Origin: Candidatus Xenobia bacterium
GTDB lineage: Bacteria; Vulcanimicrobiota; Xenobia; Xenobiales; QWHO01
Length of the DNA: 64,000 nucleotides
Direction: 5' to 3'
NCBI GenBank assembly: GCA_045863235.1
Contig: BTUM01000005.1
Coordinates: 129,154-193,153, forward strand
Positions 3 through 55,332 of the stretch are shown here, in pieces (the first letter of the stretch is position 1; each line of letters begins with the position of its first letter). Below the pieces are notes generated by a model. It was not told the origin of the DNA, made no database searches, and was given only the letters and a program-made list of their open reading frames with translations. Position numbers and translations under genes: made by a program.

Positions 3-1385
3 GCCACGTTCGGGCAGGGGCTCTTTCTGGTGGGAGGTTCGGGGGGTGTGATCCTGACCTCGCCCGACGGCGTCACCTGGACCCAGGCCGTGAGCGGTAC
101 GGGCAACATCCTCTGGGGAGCCACCTTCGCGCGTGGTCTGTTTGTGGTCAGCGGTCAGTTTGGGACCCTGTTGACCAGTCCGGACGGTCGGGCCTGGACC
201 GCTCGGCCCTCGGGGGTGAACAGCTTCCTGTGGCAGGTGATCGAAGGGCCGCCAGGGTTCGTGGCCGTGGGCGATCAGGGGGCCATCACCTTCTCACCGG
301 ATGGGATCAACTGGACGGCTCAGGCCTCACCAACGGGCGAGGTGCTGCGAGGCGTGACCTTCGGCCGGGGGGGATTCGTGGCCGCCGGCAGCCAGGGGAC
401 CTTGCTCGGGTCCGATGACGGTCGAGCCTTTCGCCTGCTGGACTCCCCGGTGGCCGACGTCCTCCGGGGCGTGACCTTTGCCGATGGCACCACCTATGTA
501 GCCGTCGGAGACGAGGGTACCATCTTGCTGTCTTATGATGGCCGGGACTTCTTCATCGACCAGACGGCCGACCCCGAGGAACTCTGGGCCACCACCTTCG
601 CCAACGGCATCTTCCTGGCCGGCGGGGGAGAGGGGAGGCTGCTCGTCTCGAGCGACGGCCAGAGCTGGCGCCGGATCGAGTCGGGCACGGCCGAGAACCT
701 CTATGCGGCTGCCTTCGGAAACGGGCGTTTCGTAATGGTCGGCTCGCGGGGAGCCATTCTGACCTCGACCGATGCCCTCACCTGGACGGCCGTGCCCTCT
801 CCGACGGACCAGAATCTCTACGGCCTGGCCTTTCTGAACGGCCTGTTCCTGGCCGGCGGCCTGGAAGGTACCCTTCTGACCAGCCCCGATGGCCTGACCT
901 GGACTTCGGTGGCGGTTCCCTCGGTCCACGCCCTGCACGGCTTTGCCTTCGGGAACGGGGTATTCGTGGAGGGCGGAGCGGGCAGCCTGTTGACCTCGCC
1001 CGATGCGGTGACCTGGACCGTCAATGCCGTGGGGATCGGGCACTTTCAGACCGCGGCCGCCTTCGGCAACGGGGTCTTCGCGGTGCCGGGCCACGTGGGC
1101 CGGGTGCTGGTCAGCGCCGATGGAGTCAACTGGAGCCTGGTGCTGGCCCCCACCCAGGCCAACCTGAACGCGGCCCTCTTTGCCGGGGGCCAGTTCCTTT
1201 TGGGCGCCCAGGGCGCGGTGCTGACCTCGAGCGATGCCAGTAGCTGGGCTCTCCACGCTGTGCCGACCGACCAGAACGTGCGCGGGCTGGCTTTCGGCAA
1301 CGGTCGTTACGTGGCCGTGGGGGGAGGGGAGGCTCTGCTCTTCTCGGTGGACGGGGTCCGCTGGGAGGCCGGGATCATCGAGTGA
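3..1385 (+). CDS. Beta-propeller repeat protein (Asp-box/BNR-like SxDGxxW repeats), 5' end outside the window
   Basis: About 11 repeats of roughly 40 aa (FGNGxFVAVGxxGxILTSxDGxTW); frame open to the left edge. Confidence 0.85.
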   Translation, partial: ATFGQGLFLVGGSGGVILTSPDGVTWTQAVSGTGNILWGATFARGLFVVSGQFGTLLTSPDGRAWTARPSGVNSFLWQVIEGPPGFVAVGDQGAITFSPDGINWTAQASPTGEVLRGVTFGRGGFVAAGSQGTLLGSDDGRAFRLLDSPVADVLRGVTFADGTTYVAVGDEGTILLSYDGRDFFIDQTADPEELWATTFANGIFLAGGGEGRLLVSSDGQSWRRIESGTAENLYAAAFGNGRFVMVGSRGAILTSTDALTWTAVPSPTDQNLYGLAFLNGLFLAGGLEGTLLTSPDGLTWTSVAVPSVHALHGFAFGNGVFVEGGAGSLLTSPDAVTWTVNAVGIGHFQTAAAFGNGVFAVPGHVGRVLVSADGVNWSLVLAPTQANLNAALFAGGQFLLGAQGAVLTSSDASSWALHAVPTDQNVRGLAFGNGRYVAVGGGEALLFSVDGVRWEAGIIE

Positions 1386-1386
1386 C

Positions 1387-1418
1387 CGGGCGAGAGGGCC
1401 CTTCGGCCCTCTCGCCCG
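1387..1418. terminator. GC-rich hairpin between the convergent propeller gene and the tRNA array
   Basis: Perfect 14-bp stem CGGGCGAGAGGGCC / GGCCCTCTCGCCCG with CTTC loop; no clear U tract. Confidence 0.6.
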
Positions 1419-1424
1419 TGGAAG

Positions 1425-1509
1425 TGGTATCCGGAGCCGGACTTGAACCGGCACGCCGCGAGGGCGCCAGCTTCTCGAGCTGACGTGTCTTCCATTCCAC
1501 CATCCGGAC
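1425..1509 (-). tRNA. tRNA-Leu(GAG), atypical anticodon loop (C33, A37)
   Basis: 85 nt; acceptor GTCCGGA/TCCGGAT, A73, encoded CCA; anticodon stem TCAGC/GCTGG, loop TCGAGAA; long variable arm; T loop TTCAAGT. Confidence 0.88.
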
Positions 1510-1526
1510 AAGAGCGGTCGACAGAT

Positions 1527-1603
1527 TGGCGACCCTGGCGAGACTTGAACTCGCTACCCCCGGCTTCGTAGACCGGTGCTCTGATCCATTGAGCTACAGG
1601 GTC
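1527..1603 (-). tRNA. tRNA-Arg(ACG)
   Basis: 77 nt; acceptor GACCCTG/CAGGGTC, G73, CCA; anticodon arm CCGGT-CTACGAA-GCCGG. Confidence 0.95.
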
Positions 1604-1609
1604 ATTGAC

Positions 1610-1685
1610 TGGCAGACGCGGATGGCCTCGAACCACCGACCTTTGCGTTCAGAGCGCAACGTTCTTCCTGCTGAACTACGCGTCT
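1610..1685 (-). tRNA. tRNA-Gln(CUG), atypical A1-U72 pair
   Basis: 76 nt; acceptor AGACGCG/CGCGTCT, G73, CCA; anticodon arm TTGCG-CTCTGAA-CGCAA. Confidence 0.9.
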
Positions 1686-1720
1686 ATATATTCCTATTTA
1701 TTGTTGAATAGGAATAAAAA

Positions 1721-1797
1721 TGGTAGGCTCGGAGAGATTCGAACTCTCAAGCACCTGCTTCTGAAACAGGTCTGTCTTCCAATTGCAGCACGAGCCC
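1721..1797 (-). tRNA. tRNA-Leu(CAG) with short variable loop and A37
   Basis: 77 nt; acceptor GGGCTCG/CGAGCCT, A73, CCA; anticodon arm CCTGT-TTCAGAA-GCAGG; 5-nt variable loop TGCTT; Leu-type D arm with A15:U48. Confidence 0.88.
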
Positions 1798-1843
1798 GGG
1801 TGGAGTTCCTGGCTGACTCTCTAAGGAACGCGATTCAGGGCTG

Positions 1844-1877
1844 AAAAGTAGAAACCACCGGAGTGAGCTCGCGGTGG
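1844..1877 (-). terminator. Intrinsic terminator (attenuator) between the leader peptide and the tRNA array
   Basis: Minus strand CCACCG-C-GAG-CTCA-CTC-CGGTGG followed by TTTCTACTTTT. Confidence 0.8.
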
Positions 1878-1907
1878 GTGGGGGAGAGGCCGGTCCTGGA
1901 AGCTGGA

Positions 1908-1979
1908 CTAGGCGCTCGTGCCACCCCCGCGGCGGCGAAGCAGAAGGCCCTGGCGTTGACGAAGCTGCGGTCGTAGCAT
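1908..1979 (-). CDS. Putative attenuator leader peptide MLRPQLRQRQGLLLRRRGGGTSA (23 aa)
   Basis: AGGAGG at 1993-1988, 8 nt before ATG; codons ATG CTA CGA CCG CAG CTT CGT CAA CGC CAG GGC CTT CTG CTT CGC CGC CGC GGG GGT GGC ACG AGC GCC TAG; too short for the ORF track. Confidence 0.8.
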   Translation of the reverse strand: MLRPQLRQRQGLLLRRRGGGTSA

Positions 1980-2030
1980 GATGATGGCCTCCTGTCTTTG
2001 TGTGGTCGCTCGGTTGGAGCTGACCCGGTC

Positions 2031-2060
2031 ATTATAGGCGAGTCAGGGCGGTGGCGTCAA
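2031..2060 (-). promoter_or_regulatory. Sigma70-type promoter of the leader/tRNA operon
   Basis: TTGACG (2060-2055), 18 nt, TATAAT (2036-2031); AT-rich UP-like tract at about 2064-2090. Confidence 0.85.
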
Positions 2061-2135
2061 CCCTTAAATAGGAAAAATTAGAAATTTTGACAGCAAGCTA
2101 TGGTAGATTTCCGAAGAATCTGTCTTCCAGTATTG

Positions 2136-2456
2136 TCAGTTCCAACGGGTGGCAGCCGCCCAGAAGCCGACGATCAGGAAAGCTTCGGCCATACCGGCCA
2201 CCAGATTGAGCAGCAGGGCCACGACGGCGGTCGGCCTGGATGATTCGCGAATGAGAGCAAGGATGGCCAGCACCATGCCCGCCAGGTGCACCACCGGCCC
2301 GGCCAGGAAGGCCAGCAGCAGTCCGGCGCCCATGGGGTCGCCAAGGGCCCTGGTCGGACTCGGCAGCTCGACCACCAGCATCGTCCACAGGGCCAGCAGG
2401 GCTGGATATCCCAGGCCCAGCAAGAGGGCCATACGGCCGAGCTTTGGCGCTTTCAT
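2136..2456 (-). CDS. Small membrane protein (about 3 TM helices)
   Basis: Hydrophobic ORF; ATG at 2456 chosen, TTG at 2501 possible. Confidence 0.65.
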   Translation of the reverse strand: MKAPKLGRMALLLGLGYPALLALWTMLVVELPSPTRALGDPMGAGLLLAFLAGPVVHLAGMVLAILALIRESSRPTAVVALLLNLVAGMAEAFLIVGFWAAATRWN

Positions 2457-2705
2457 GGAGGTGGTTTTCAGAGCTGGAGGGCTTTCCCCTTTCTTGCTCA
2501 ATGAATTTTATTCAATGTCACGACGGGCGCTCAGAACCATTGCGACGGTTTGGTTGAGGGTACCGTCTGCTCAGGGCGGTCAGCCCGGAAAGGTCCACCG
2601 TTCTGCAGGGCGTTACCGTTCCCACCGGGGGGGGGCAGGCTTTTTGTGTTGGCGATCCGGGCTTGTGCTGAAGGGCCCCGAGGGTTGGGCCTTGAAGGCC
2701 GAACG

Positions 2706-4043
2706 GTGACCCTCGCCTCTCCACCGCTGGCTGGTTTCCATGTGATGACCAAGCCAACCGGGCCCATCTGCAACCTCGACTGCAAGTACTGCTTCTATCT
2801 CGAGAAAGAGCGCCTCTACCCGCCCGGGACCGACTGGCGCATGGCCCCCGAGACGCTCGAGTCCTTCATCAAGCAGCACATCGAGGCCCATTCCGTGCCC
2901 GAGGTGATCTTCGCCTGGCAGGGCGGCGAGCCCACGCTACTGGGCGTGGACTACTTTCGCCTGGCGGTCGAGTTGCAGAAGAAATACGCCGGGGGCAAGC
3001 GCATCCAGAACGCGTTTCAGACCAACGGGGTGCTGCTCGACGACGAGTGGTGCGGCTTTTTCAAAGAGAACGGCTTCCTGGTGGGCATCTCGATCGACGG
3101 GCCGGAGGCTCTGCACGACCACTATCGGGTGGATCGGGGCGGCAAACCCAGCTTCAAGCGTGTCATGCGCGGGCTGGAGGCCCTCACGCGCAACCAGGTC
3201 GACTTCAACACCCTGACCGTGGTCAACCGGGCCAACCAGGACCATCCGCTCGAGGTTTATCGCTTCCTCAAAGAGATAGGCAGCCTGGTGATGCAGTTCA
3301 TCCCCCTGGTCGAGCGGCTGACCGATCAGCCCGACCCGCTGGTCATGGTTTCCCCCGAGCACAAGGGGGAGGCCCACGTGGCCGACTGGTCGGTCCAGGC
3401 CGAGCCCTACGGGCGTTTTCTGTGCGCCATCTTCGATGAATGGGTGCGTCAGGACGTGGGCAAGCACTTCGTGCAGCTGTTTGACATCACGCTCGAGTCG
3501 TTCATGGGCATGCCCCAGAGCCTGTGCTGGTTCCGGGAGACCTGCGGGGCGGCCCTGGCCCTGGAGCATAACGGCGATCTTTACTCCTGCGACCATTTCG
3601 TCTATCCCGAGAACCGGTTGGGAAACATCATGCAAGAGCCGCTGGTGGCCCTGATCCACTCGGCCCAACAACACAAGTTCGGCCAGGACAAGAAGGACAC
3701 TCTGCCCCGCTACTGCCGCGAGTGTGACGTACGCTTCGCCTGCAACGGCGAGTGCCCCAAGCACCGCTTTCATCGCACTCCGGACGGCGAGGAGGGCCTC
3801 AACTACCTGTGTGCCGGCTACATGCGCTTCTTTCGGCATGTCGAGCCCTACATGCGCTTTATGGCCGCAATGCTGAAACGACGCCAGCCTCCGGCCCACG
3901 TGATGCGCTTTGCTCCCGAGCTGGAGGCGGCCTTTGCCCGGACCGGGCCGGACCAGCCCTGCCCCTGCCGCGCCGGGCGGCCCTATGAGCTTTGTTGCGG
4001 GAGAACCCGCCTTGAGAACATGAAAGGGAGAAAGGACAGATAA
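2706..4043 (+). CDS. Anaerobic sulfatase maturase (radical SAM/SPASM) with C-terminal SEC-C motif
   Basis: CNLDCKYC, WQGGEP, YSCDHFV, CRECDVRFACNGECPK, CPCRAGRPYELCCG; adjacent to a sulfatase. Confidence 0.95.
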   Translation: MTLASPPLAGFHVMTKPTGPICNLDCKYCFYLEKERLYPPGTDWRMAPETLESFIKQHIEAHSVPEVIFAWQGGEPTLLGVDYFRLAVELQKKYAGGKRIQNAFQTNGVLLDDEWCGFFKENGFLVGISIDGPEALHDHYRVDRGGKPSFKRVMRGLEALTRNQVDFNTLTVVNRANQDHPLEVYRFLKEIGSLVMQFIPLVERLTDQPDPLVMVSPEHKGEAHVADWSVQAEPYGRFLCAIFDEWVRQDVGKHFVQLFDITLESFMGMPQSLCWFRETCGAALALEHNGDLYSCDHFVYPENRLGNIMQEPLVALIHSAQQHKFGQDKKDTLPRYCRECDVRFACNGECPKHRFHRTPDGEEGLNYLCAGYMRFFRHVEPYMRFMAAMLKRRQPPAHVMRFAPELEAAFARTGPDQPCPCRAGRPYELCCGRTRLENMKGRKDR

Positions 4044-4045
4044 CC

Positions 4046-6043
4046 ATGGACGGCAACATCACCAGGCGCGACCTTCTGGGTGCGGGACTCGCGACTCTGG
4101 CCGGAGCGGCTCTGGGCCCGGCCATCCTGACGGCGGGCTGCACGACCGGAGCCGGCGACCCCGGGCCTGCCACCGGCGGCGTTCCCGAAGAGGCCACCCG
4201 GCGACGACCCAATATCCTGCTGGTATTGTGCGACGAGTTCCGATTTCCGGGTCAGTATCCGGCGGGCACGGGCGAGGCTCCGGGCCTGCGAGAGATCTTC
4301 GGCTTCGCGCCCACGCTCTCGCCTGACAATCCCTTCACCGCCCTCTTTCCTGGTATGACCAGGCTGCGCCAGAACGCTGTCGTGCTGCGAACTCACTACA
4401 TCGCTTCGGCAGCCTGCGTGCCCAGTCGGGCCACCATGCTGACCGGACAGTACCCCACCGTGCACGGAGTCACCAGCACCACCGGCTTTTTCAAGAGCGG
4501 CGACGACCCGGGCTTCGTGTTCCTGGACCCGGACGGCATCCCTACCGCCGGGGACTGGTTTCAGGCGGCCGGCTACGAGACGTACTACTTCGGCAAGTGG
4601 CACGTTTCCGAGACCTGCGACGACCTGGGTCCATGGGGCTTCCCCTTCGCTGCCTGGGATGGCCCTGAGCCGCACGGCTCGGATCCGGCCAACCTGGGAG
4701 TCTATCGCGATCCGGAGTTTGCCAGCAACACCATCAGCTTCCTTAACTCCAAGGCCGGGCAGCAGCCTGGAGAGGCGCCCTGGTTCGCGGTGACCTCCTA
4801 TCTCGCGCCTCACGACGTCTCGGGTTGGCCGCTGCAGTGGTTCCTCCCCGGGGACGTCGGGGTCCAGCCCTTCCCCGGTCCGCTCGTGATCCCGCCCATA
4901 CCTGGGGCGGGGGCCATCAGCAATGCCGCCACCTCGACCAGCCAGAACAGCGATTGTCCACCGCCCATCTCGGGCCCGGTCCCTCTCAACCCGGGTGGCT
5001 ACCCGCCCGGTGCCTTCACGACGCCGCCCACCTTTGCCGAGGACCTGAGCACCAAGCCCCAGTGCCAGCTCGACATGTCCTTCAAGATCGGGCTCTGTCA
5101 GAAGTCCATCCTGCCGGCTCCGCTGCGGCCCCTGGCCCCAAATCCGTTCCAGCTGCAGGGAGCCGACTACCAGGCCTGGGCCACGGCCTACGGCGAGTGG
5201 TGGTACTACCTTCACTACCTCTTCGACACCCAGCTCACGCGGGTGCTTCAGACCCTGGATGCGACCGGGCTGCGCGAGAACACCATCGTCATCTTCACCT
5301 GCGACCACGGCGATTACGCCGGGGCCCACGGCGGTCAGGTCCAGAAGTGGCACTCGGCCTATGAGGAGGCCACTCACGTGCCGATGGTGGTGTCTTCTCC
5401 GCTGATCAACCCCACCGATACGATCCGCGAGTTCACCATGCCCACCAGCCACATCGACCTGTTGCCCACCCTATTGGGGCTGGCCGGCTTCAATCAGGCC
5501 CAGCAGTCCGAGCTGAAGGGGCGCATCACCGGCCAGGGCGTCGTGCCCGACCTGGTGGGCACGGACCTGAGCGGCTACCTGGCCGAGCCTGGCACCACCA
5601 CGCCCATTCCCGGGCACGATGGGAATCCGCGGCCCGGAGTTTTGTTCATCACCGAGGACGAGATCAGCCAGATGACCTCGATCGACCCCAACAACTCTGG
5701 CTTCCCGGCCTTCGAGACTTTCCTCCGGCTGGTCGAGGAGGCCCGCCTCGGGCCGGCTCCCCAGCTCGCCCCCGGGCCGATCCGTCAGCCCAATCTGGTG
5801 CGCACCCTGACCGATGGGGTGTGGAAATACTCGCGCTACTACGATCCCAACGGGGTGGAAGCGGACCAGCACGAGTTTTACAATCTGGCCTCCGACCCCA
5901 TCGAGGCGGTTAACCTGGTCGACTTCCGCACCAACCAGATCCGTCCGGGGGTGGCCGTGCCGGGCTTGACACAGGCAGAGCTGACCGCCCGGCTCAACTT
6001 GATGGTGCAGCAGTTGGCCCAGCAAGAGGCGTTGTTACTCTAA
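4046..6043 (+). CDS. Cys-type sulfatase, Tat-exported lipoprotein
   Basis: TRRDLL Tat motif, lipobox TAGC, CVPSRATMLTG signature, GKWH, DHG. Confidence 0.92.
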   Translation: MDGNITRRDLLGAGLATLAGAALGPAILTAGCTTGAGDPGPATGGVPEEATRRRPNILLVLCDEFRFPGQYPAGTGEAPGLREIFGFAPTLSPDNPFTALFPGMTRLRQNAVVLRTHYIASAACVPSRATMLTGQYPTVHGVTSTTGFFKSGDDPGFVFLDPDGIPTAGDWFQAAGYETYYFGKWHVSETCDDLGPWGFPFAAWDGPEPHGSDPANLGVYRDPEFASNTISFLNSKAGQQPGEAPWFAVTSYLAPHDVSGWPLQWFLPGDVGVQPFPGPLVIPPIPGAGAISNAATSTSQNSDCPPPISGPVPLNPGGYPPGAFTTPPTFAEDLSTKPQCQLDMSFKIGLCQKSILPAPLRPLAPNPFQLQGADYQAWATAYGEWWYYLHYLFDTQLTRVLQTLDATGLRENTIVIFTCDHGDYAGAHGGQVQKWHSAYEEATHVPMVVSSPLINPTDTIREFTMPTSHIDLLPTLLGLAGFNQAQQSELKGRITGQGVVPDLVGTDLSGYLAEPGTTTPIPGHDGNPRPGVLFITEDEISQMTSIDPNNSGFPAFETFLRLVEEARLGPAPQLAPGPIRQPNLVRTLTDGVWKYSRYYDPNGVEADQHEFYNLASDPIEAVNLVDFRTNQIRPGVAVPGLTQAELTARLNLMVQQLAQQEALLL

Positions 6044-54567: not shown

Positions 54568-55332
54568 GTGCGCGCCTCATTCGCGGGAGTGACCCTGGAG
54601 CTGCCCGCCTTCTTCCAGGCGGGCTCCGAGGCCCTGGCCGTGCTCGAGCCGCAGCTCACCCTGAACGTCAAGACGCTCCCCGATGCGGCCTCGGCCGACG
54701 AGATCGCCGATGCCTACGCTCGCTTTCTGGAGCAGTCTATTCCTGGTCTGGAGGAGTTGTCGCGCGAGCCGACCGAGCTGGGAGTGCTGCGCGAGCACAC
54801 TTTCCGCCAGGATGAGTCCCAGGTCTACCAGCGCCAACTCTACCTGGTGCCCGTGCCGCCCAGGGCTTACGTGGTCACCTGCACGGTCGTGGACGCAGAG
54901 CTCGACTCCGCCCGCGAGCGGGCCGGCAGGGTTCTGGCTCGAGTCGCCAGGCCAGGGATGGATAGCCTGGGCCTGGGCGCGGTGGAGGTCGACCTGCCTG
55001 ACTGCAGTCAGGTGATGTTCCTGCCCGCCGCCCTGCCCGAGATGCTGCGGCCGATGCTGTTGATGGCCTGGGACACGTCCGGGGACAGCCCGGAGGCGCA
55101 GGCCCGGACCACCCTGGCGCAGGCGACCGAGCTGGTGATTCTGGAGCAGGGAATGGTGGGCTCGCTCTACCGCCGGGAGATGCTGCTGCAGCAGGACGGC
55201 AACGATCTCTTTGCCGCCCACCTGCACCTGCGCCGCGGACAGCGCTCGGTGCTGCTGGCTCTGACGGGGGAGGCCCGCACCGCCTCGCTGCTCGCGGCGG
55301 CGGCGCGGGAGCTGGCCAGCCAGCTGTCCTAG
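54568..55332 (+). CDS. DcrB/PsbP-like (DUF1795-like) tandem-domain protein
   Basis: LREHTF...VYQRQLYL...AYVVTCT pattern, repeated in degenerate form; 6 nt after the large gene. Confidence 0.55.
   Translation: MRASFAGVTLELPAFFQAGSEALAVLEPQLTLNVKTLPDAASADEIADAYARFLEQSIPGLEELSREPTELGVLREHTFRQDESQVYQRQLYLVPVPPRAYVVTCTVVDAELDSARERAGRVLARVARPGMDSLGLGAVEVDLPDCSQVMFLPAALPEMLRPMLLMAWDTSGDSPEAQARTTLAQATELVILEQGMVGSLYRREMLLQQDGNDLFAAHLHLRRGQRSVLLALTGEARTASLLAAAARELASQLS

Follow-up and report, generated by a model that had tools for sequence, protein, structure and literature searches.

The window analysed here, a stretch of 64,000 nucleotides from contig BTUM01000005.1 of a Candidatus Xenobia bacterium, holds a unit of about 650 nt in which a promoter, a short leader reading frame and a terminator precede four tRNA genes. 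Its features are the following:

2031-2060, minus strand: sigma70-type promoter TTGACG-18-TATAAT, matching the consensus at 11 of 12 positions
1988-1993, minus strand: Shine-Dalgarno sequence AGGAGG, 8 nt 5' of the leader ATG
1908-1979, minus strand: leader ORF of 23 codons, MLRPQLRQRQGLLLRRRGGGTSA, with 15/16 CNN codons
1921-1936, minus strand: predicted antiterminator strand (leader codons 15-20), pairing with 1871-1881
1844-1877, minus strand: intrinsic terminator predicted by folding, hairpin CCACCG..CGGTGG (1877-1855) and U-rich tail
1721-1797, minus strand: tRNA-Leu(CAG), 77 nt, short variable arm, G36-A37-A38, A73 (ARAGORN and Rfam)
1686-1720, minus strand: AT-rich spacer hairpin in the Leu-CAG/Gln interval, 11-12 bp in 4/4 homologues although its sequence varies
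1610-1685, minus strand: tRNA-Gln(CTG), A37, A1-U72 (ARAGORN and Rfam)
1527-1603, minus strand: tRNA-Arg(ACG), A37 (ARAGORN and Rfam)
1425-1509, minus strand: tRNA-Leu(GAG), long arm, unusual C33, A37-A38 (ARAGORN and Rfam)
1387-1418, no strand assigned: GC-rich hairpin separating the array from the convergent gene, lacking a U tract, of altered sequence in 4/4 homologues

The four genes, which serve three amino acids, are transcribed from the minus strand in the order Leu-CAG, Gln-CTG, Arg-ACG, Leu-GAG, and CCA is encoded in all of them. An earlier note on this DNA had described all four tRNAs as combining G36 with A37-A38, and the genes found with ARAGORN and Rfam have the same anticodon loops, TT-CAG-AA, CT-CTG-AA, CT-ACG-AA and TC-GAG-AA. 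Its caveat also holds, since the array consists of Leu, Gln, Arg and Leu only and tRNAs for Pro and His are missing. The promoter, the terminator/antiterminator and the short variable arm of Leu-CAG are parts of the unit which that description did not include. The hairpin at 1387-1418 is likely to be the 3' boundary of the unit. A search of window positions 1300-2800 against Rfam gave nothing above threshold but the four tRNAs, and neither a riboswitch nor a T-box was found there.

The array tRNAs are closer to the tRNAs of L-arrays and phages than to those of the host. Leu-CAG shares 69-71% identity with array tRNA-Leu of other bacteria and at most 61% with every other tRNA of its own genome. 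The source genome (G000) encodes both GlnRS and GatB; as GlnRS is available, charging of the array Gln need not depend on GatCAB. Just upstream of the -35 box (window 2061-2090) lies the word TTCCTATT, which resembles the AT-rich spacer hairpin at 1686-1720. Further upstream, at 2742-6043, a radical SAM/SPASM gene (anaerobic sulfatase maturase-like) is followed by a sulfatase gene; both are unconnected with the tRNA unit. A tRNA-Ser(GCT) called by ARAGORN at 55221-55310 of the window is probably false, the normal tRNA consensus being missing.

The leader begins ATG CTA CGA CCG CAG CTT CGT CAA CGC CAG GGC CTT CTG CTT CGC CGC CGC, and our recount agrees with the earlier one that 15 of the 16 codons after ATG start with C. 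Codons of the CNN type make up 0.312 of all codons in 2,123 long ORFs of the genome, which gives a binomial P of 3e-7 for the leader. Two of the genome's 54,470 ATG ORFs with a length of 16-60 codons have 15/16 CNN codons, and the leader is the only one of the two with a Shine-Dalgarno sequence. From the binomial probability and this genome-wide rarity we conclude that the CNN run did not arise by chance. CTT, CTA and CGA, previously noted as uncommon, indeed occur at 6.1, 0.9 and 7.2 per 1000 codons, and CAA (5.7) and CGT (6.4) are further rare codons of the leader. It contains a single Pro codon (CCG) and no CGG, and besides the codons of the array it has CTA, CCG and CAA, whose readers are G36-G37 tRNAs outside the array. 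Codons 2-12 form the sensing window predicted by the folding model described below; it contains neither Leu UUR nor Arg AGR codons. The layout is that of an attenuator, with a translatable leader that carries the regulatory codons, a promoter upstream and the controlled genes downstream.

The partner of the antiterminator strand (1871-1881) overlaps the 5' arm of the terminator. When the RNA was folded with a ribosome footprint of 12 nt, the terminator had a probability of at most 0.02 with the A site at codons 1-12 and of at least 0.99 at codons 13-24, so that the predicted switch point lies at codon 12/13 of the leader. According to these computations, terminator and antiterminator of the source genome are mutually exclusive and are set by the position of the ribosome. 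The leader/terminator duplex (-22.3 kcal/mol) is the strongest of 141 leader-plus-terminator candidates genome-wide; the MFE of the whole leader (z=-1.83) is uninformative. Of 21 loci folded at equilibrium, 3 showed a switch; G002 was not among them. As this method exaggerates strong terminators, a co-transcriptional test was used instead, in which pairing trivially falls to zero close to the stop and only the comparison with shuffles is informative. Antiterminator pairing reached 0.87 in the source genome compared to 0.31 in shuffles, none of 30 shuffles being as high; the values were 0.82 and 0.41 in G002 and 0.64 and 0.16 in G004. When 23 loci were tested in this way, 12 exceeded at least 29 of 30 shuffles and 11 did not. 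Hence the unit is most likely a leader-peptide attenuator that gates backup tRNAs, and on the strength of these models the attenuation switch very probably works as described.

In wastewater and sludge studies, contigs of RNA libraries extend over the leader and all four tRNAs and end short of the promoter. They are found as single records in X4 (1425-2009) and X6 (1369-2009), and in pieces in X1 (1406-1983). Position 2009, at which contigs of two studies end, is just inside the promoter, which may be taken as a weak hint. Such contigs show neither strand nor level, and runs with small word shares were left out. They hint weakly at a single transcript and at some read-through under natural conditions; what they represent is the read-through product and not the short leader RNA, and leaky or general expression is also compatible with them.

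The complete unit is present in G001 and G002 (88-90% identity) and on three metagenome contigs (L283-L285), where the same convergent gene adjoins. Diverged units with their own Leu/Arg(/His)-rich leaders are located at other places in G004 and G035. The -35 box is found in 4/4 homologues and TATAAT in 3/4, while the Shine-Dalgarno sequence is retained in G001, G002 and L283. The loop TC-GAG-AA is common to G001, G002, L283 and G035; within the phylum, the A37 Leu-SAG pattern occurs in 6 of 401 genomes. In four distinct homologues the leader carries the changes CCG>CTG, CAG>CGA and CAA>CTA, all of them non-synonymous and all retaining the first C; the Pro codon has become CTG in 2 of the 4. 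Related terminators are found in G004 and in two further units of the source genome. In the G004 array (L004:1590-1880), a tRNA 3' half is directly followed by the matching 5' half, either permuted or decayed, and an A37 Arg-ACG tRNA has a long insertion in the variable region.

The same design is found at other tRNA arrays. A scan of genome contigs for short-arm A37 Leu tRNAs yielded at least 120 loci, 80 of them with flanks; being selected on this tRNA, it gives no frequency and is blind to Pro-only arrays. Arrays from Cyanobacteria, Bacteroidota, Acidobacteriota, Pseudomonadota and others are among the matches listed. A terminator was present in 39 of the 63 listed array loci with upstream DNA (four loci of the order studied here added), and at 23 of these 39 an ATG ORF stops 20-35 nt before the terminator, compared to 0-7 in other 16-nt bins. 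The leaders moreover match the arrays that they precede. With one locus taken per lineage (14 lineages), the non-Leu leader residues matched their own array 68 times, while permutations gave 39.5+-5.7 and 0 of 20,000 reached 68; the match amounts to 0.38 in frame, 0.16 and 0.15 in the other frames and 0.185 in shuffles. For instance, the leader MKTQLLFSLYLFLL precedes Phe and four Leu tRNAs (L188), the CNN-rich leader MILHFIQPQQLRPQ, which includes Pro, precedes Pro, Gln, His and Leu tRNAs of a Bacteroidia array, all with A37 (L227), and Variovorax arrays have leaders rich in Trp, Cys, Asp and Gln. In Flavobacterium (L229, L233, L235), arrays of Asn, Asp, His and Tyr tRNAs stand behind leaders with Asn, His and Tyr. 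These four tRNAs make up the queuosine set, the targets of colicin E5. In Obscuribacteraceae (L167, L181), four Leu tRNAs and a Tyr tRNA are combined with leaders ending in LRLYYLG and with another hairpin geometry. A37 Leu tRNAs were common in a viral scan of 116 loci; a filter for CNN-only leaders gave none that was convincing among these, of which 80 had flanks of 1000 nt and many arrays were incomplete.

The source genome contains sister units. In one of them (L288; G000:C12:70090-70900, minus strand), a promoter, a leader (MKMSTCH...WEGEPLA) and a terminator of the same type are accompanied by a second conserved ORF of 63 codons with a Shine-Dalgarno sequence and by a strong hairpin; its tRNAs are a tRNA-Pro(TGG), which has C32 and G37, and an unusual tRNA-Tyr, whose anticodon in G003 is that of Cys. 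This unit is conserved in G001, G003 and G004. Another (L286; G000:C47:900-3430, plus strand) has a leader and a terminator of the same family, placed ahead of a tRNA-Leu(TAA)-like gene that is decayed and has G37, and of an operon encoding, among others, a protein of 529 aa that gave no Pfam or NCBIfam match. The third (L287; G000:C23:88200-89660, plus strand) consists of a short ORF and terminator, a DUF7873 gene and several tRNA-like remnants. In G015, a lone tRNA-Pro(TGG) with A37 follows two terminator-like hairpins next to a probable integrase (L310; G015:C182). Upstream of the two rtcB genes of the source genome no comparable leader was found.

G37 in the housekeeping tRNAs had been named in the earlier note as the observation that would support its proposal of a sensor and bypass for TrmD failure. 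Housekeeping Leu-CAG, Leu-GAG, Gln-CTG and Arg-ACG of the source genome all have G37, and trmD, the second point to be checked, is present and intact. Among the ARAGORN calls with G36 outside the array, 14 of 16 have G37. The remaining two, an Arg-GCG on C2 and a Gln-TTG on C130, look like false calls. A further tRNA-Gln(TTG)-like sequence (L289:196-267; G000:C67, minus strand) has a -10-like box upstream and an unpaired acceptor stem and lies near a contig-end repeat; it is probably a pseudogene. Other arrays share the A37 habit: after removal of the tRNAs that matched the search pattern, which biases the Leu rows toward G, A37 was found in 99 of 129 array tRNAs with G36 (Pro and His excluded) and in 51 of 71 from phages and viruses. 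Array Pro tRNAs are least often A37 among the G36 tRNAs (24/53; viral 7/24). Position 37 is also altered in array tRNAs that are not TrmD substrates, with a base other than A in 29 of 33 Asp-GTC, G in 14 of 25 Phe-GAA and G in 14 of 47 Leu-TAA. The Pro tRNA of the sister unit L288 has G37 in 4/4 genomes (G000, G001, G003 and G004), among 44 genomes of the class a single one has an A37 Pro, and the His tRNA of the G004 array has G37.

As an explanation of the whole, we tentatively favour an attenuator that gates backup tRNAs and is triggered by a nuclease acting on G36-G37 loops, to which we give slightly less than an even chance. It builds on the anatomy of the unit, its conservation, the G37/A37 contrast and the codon match, which are directly established here. 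In the normal state, the ribosome would reach the leader stop and cover the G-rich strand, so that the terminator forms and the array yields little RNA. On failure of the G36-G37 housekeeping tRNAs that read CUN, CGN and CAR codons, the ribosome would stall in codons 2-12, the antiterminator would form and the four A37 tRNAs, readers of about 20% of all codons, would be transcribed. The most likely lesion would be a G36-G37 loop that is cut or otherwise damaged by a VapC11-like anticodon nuclease, belonging either to the toxin-antitoxin systems of the cell itself or to a competitor, and A37 would take away the GG that this nuclease requires. Provided that the switch is real, we regard a nuclease as its trigger as an evenly balanced proposition.

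According to the available text of PMC6459853, VapC11 requires GG ahead of its cut 3' of position 37 and cleaves Gln-CUG and Leu-CAG in vivo; in M. smegmatis, Leu-GAG is cut as well (PMC5175351, available text). These are the three array tRNAs of the VapC11 set, and all three have lost G36-G37. In vitro, an Arg tRNA, for which the probe indicates ACG, and Pro tRNAs are also reported as cut; that Pro has no A37 replacement in the array counts against the nuclease. Loop changes at nuclease sites are described for phage tRNAs in the available part of PMC10264068, and arrays that alter position 37 of tRNAs other than TrmD substrates speak for the nuclease too, while the fact that A37 is usual in G36 tRNAs of arrays and phages argues the other way, as it may simply be inherited. 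PIN-domain matches number 50 in the source genome, which equals the count reported for M. tuberculosis, and 31-49 in the remaining four genomes with the array. Against the nuclease, seven other genomes of the order with at least 30 PIN matches are without the A37-Leu pattern, although kinship and genome size confound any comparison of PIN counts with array presence. A VapC11 orthologue was not found when 9 of the 50 PIN proteins were compared with the PDB (four single sequences and one 5-sequence profile) and 19 with NCBIfam. VapC11 appeared once in the PDB search, weakly (E 7e-8), for the PIN group closest to fMet-cutting VapCs. The evasion of anticodon nucleases, which the earlier note had offered as an alternative, fits at least as well as its main proposal by virtue of the VapC11 targets.

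That main proposal was a sensor and bypass for loss of m1G37. The same attenuator would respond to under-methylated G37 (low Mg2+, low SAM or inhibition of TrmD), and the A37 tRNAs would need no TrmD. Since TrmD needs G36-G37, it reads the same two bases as VapC11, and A37 alone cannot decide between the two. Four G36-A37 tRNAs facing G37 housekeeping copies in a genome with trmD agree with methylation loss, as do CTA, CCG and CAA in the leader, which would be expected of a sensor for a lesion of the whole G36-G37 class, and the L227 unit with its Pro-containing, CNN-rich leader. Recoded A37 Arg-CCG arose in trmD mutants, as the available text of PMC8643618 relates, so A37 tRNAs can bypass m1G37 loss, and the Salmonella mgtL leader sets a precedent with Pro, Leu CUC/CUU and CGG codons (PMC6335274, in part). 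However, loss of TrmD in E. coli stalls Pro CCN, Arg CGG and weakly CUA codons, but not CUC, CUG or CUU, and its main growth defect is poor Pro charging (accessible portion of bioRxiv 2021.05.27.446073). The array supplies readers of CUG, CUC and CUU, but Pro and Arg-CCG, the first to fail without m1G37, are missing from it, and the leader lacks CGG as well as a conserved Pro codon. In addition, of all G36 tRNAs in arrays it is Pro that has A37 most rarely, the sister-unit Pro keeps G37 in all four genomes though an A37 Pro exists in the class, the array His of G004 keeps G37, A37 is frequent among the tRNAs of arrays and phages, and array tRNAs that are not TrmD substrates are altered at position 37 as well. 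Arg-ACG and Gln are G37 here, unlike in E. coli, and E. coli stalling data may thus not carry over. Of the proposal, a CNN leader before A37 tRNAs, G37 housekeeping counterparts and the presence of trmD stand; TrmD as the specific trigger is weakened by the Pro and CGG evidence, and we consider it unlikely.

A module for general translation stress, a horizontally acquired L-array remnant that answers any early stall (antibiotics, oxidative or nutrient stress) and in which A37 is inherited and has no special role, also seems rather unlikely, if somewhat less so. The model flips on any stall in codons 1-12, related leaders of the source genome stand before protein genes, the array tRNAs are nearer to L-array and phage tRNAs, among which A37 is common, and both antibiotics that target the ribosome and several stresses induce the trn L-array of Anabaena (PMC8421152, available text). 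Yet a generic stall sensor would have no use for leaders matched to their arrays or for the retained first-position C, and all four array tRNAs are G36. It is improbable that attenuation does not operate and that the unit is transcribed constitutively or otherwise, with leader and hairpins serving RNA stability or processing. Such a reading could draw on the read-through RNA contigs in three studies, on a weak terminator (-13 kcal/mol, interrupted U tract) and on the few loci with an equilibrium switch; the fixed spacing between leader stop and terminator, the pairing above shuffles in 12 of 23 loci and the in-frame codon match argue against it. Starvation for Leu, Arg or Gln, sensed in the manner of the leu and ilv operons, would stall a leader rich in these residues and in rare codons through uncharged tRNA. 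But extra tRNA gives no relief from a shortage of amino acids, Leu UUR and Arg AGR codons could equally sense starvation and are absent from the sensing window, and A37 would be left unexplained, which makes this very improbable.

More broadly, it is possible, though we would stop short of calling it probable, that many bacteria carry modular 'tRNA damage sensors', in which a codon-matched attenuator controls loop-altered backup tRNAs and each module serves one lesion class. The unit described here would then be a host-encoded, self-inducing RNA antidote against G36-G37 loss (by a GG nuclease or by loss of m1G37), and its sisters in the same genome would serve Pro/Tyr and Leu-UAA. If this is true, the composition of leader and array could serve as a list of the threats directed at tRNAs. 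The unit itself suggests how, and to what end, tRNA arrays in cells other than cyanobacteria may be switched on, and this answer is open to test: the leader would gauge decoding by the tRNAs that are to be replaced. With an anticodon nuclease as trigger, the unit would be an inducible RNA antidote to own or rival toxins; with m1G37 loss as trigger, a natural TrmD bypass, relevant to TrmD as a drug target.

The type of mechanism is classic. Leader-peptide attenuators such as trpL and hisL control amino-acid operons. The transcription attenuators leuL and ilvL do so as well (bioRxiv 2021.05.27.446073, accessible portion). Like these, the unit has a promoter, a short leader rich in the sensed codons, a predicted antiterminator strand in the 3' part of the leader, an intrinsic terminator and predicted read-through upon stalling; unlike these, it controls tRNA genes and not enzymes, and its codons share a first base, read by G36 tRNAs, and not an amino acid. 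Its use for backup tRNAs appears to be undescribed: a literature search limited to main texts, largely without subscription journals, turned up no account of tRNA genes under leader-peptide attenuation. With the Salmonella mgtL leader (PMC6335274, in part) the unit shares CNN codons that are translated at a rate set by G36-G37 tRNAs, here TrmD substrates in a genome with trmD. However, mgtL has Pro, Leu and CGG codons and acts by Rho-dependent termination on a Mg2+ transporter, whereas the four homologues compared here have neither a conserved Pro nor CGG in the sensing window, and the unit has an intrinsic terminator and tRNAs as its output.

L-arrays, such as the Anabaena trn operon, consist, as does the present array, of divergent tRNAs that come in addition to a full housekeeping set, and the operon is under the repressor TrcR (PMC8421152 and PMC10272220, available text); the words 'leader' and 'attenuat' are absent from the main texts of both papers. 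The short-arm A37 Leu tRNAs are of the same kind, but the present array has four genes, all G36, and is neither long nor does it cover most amino acids. A host module restricted to G36 tRNAs that contrasts with G37 housekeeping tRNAs likewise appears to be undescribed. In its tRNA set it resembles most the targets of VapC11, to which three of the four array tRNAs belong (PMC5175351 and PMC6459853, as far as their available text goes). Nuclease-insensitive phage tRNAs show a comparable loop change at the G36-G37 site (PMC10264068, in part), whereas the array is encoded by the host, sits at a single chromosomal position in three genomes of one genus and is coupled to a sensor.
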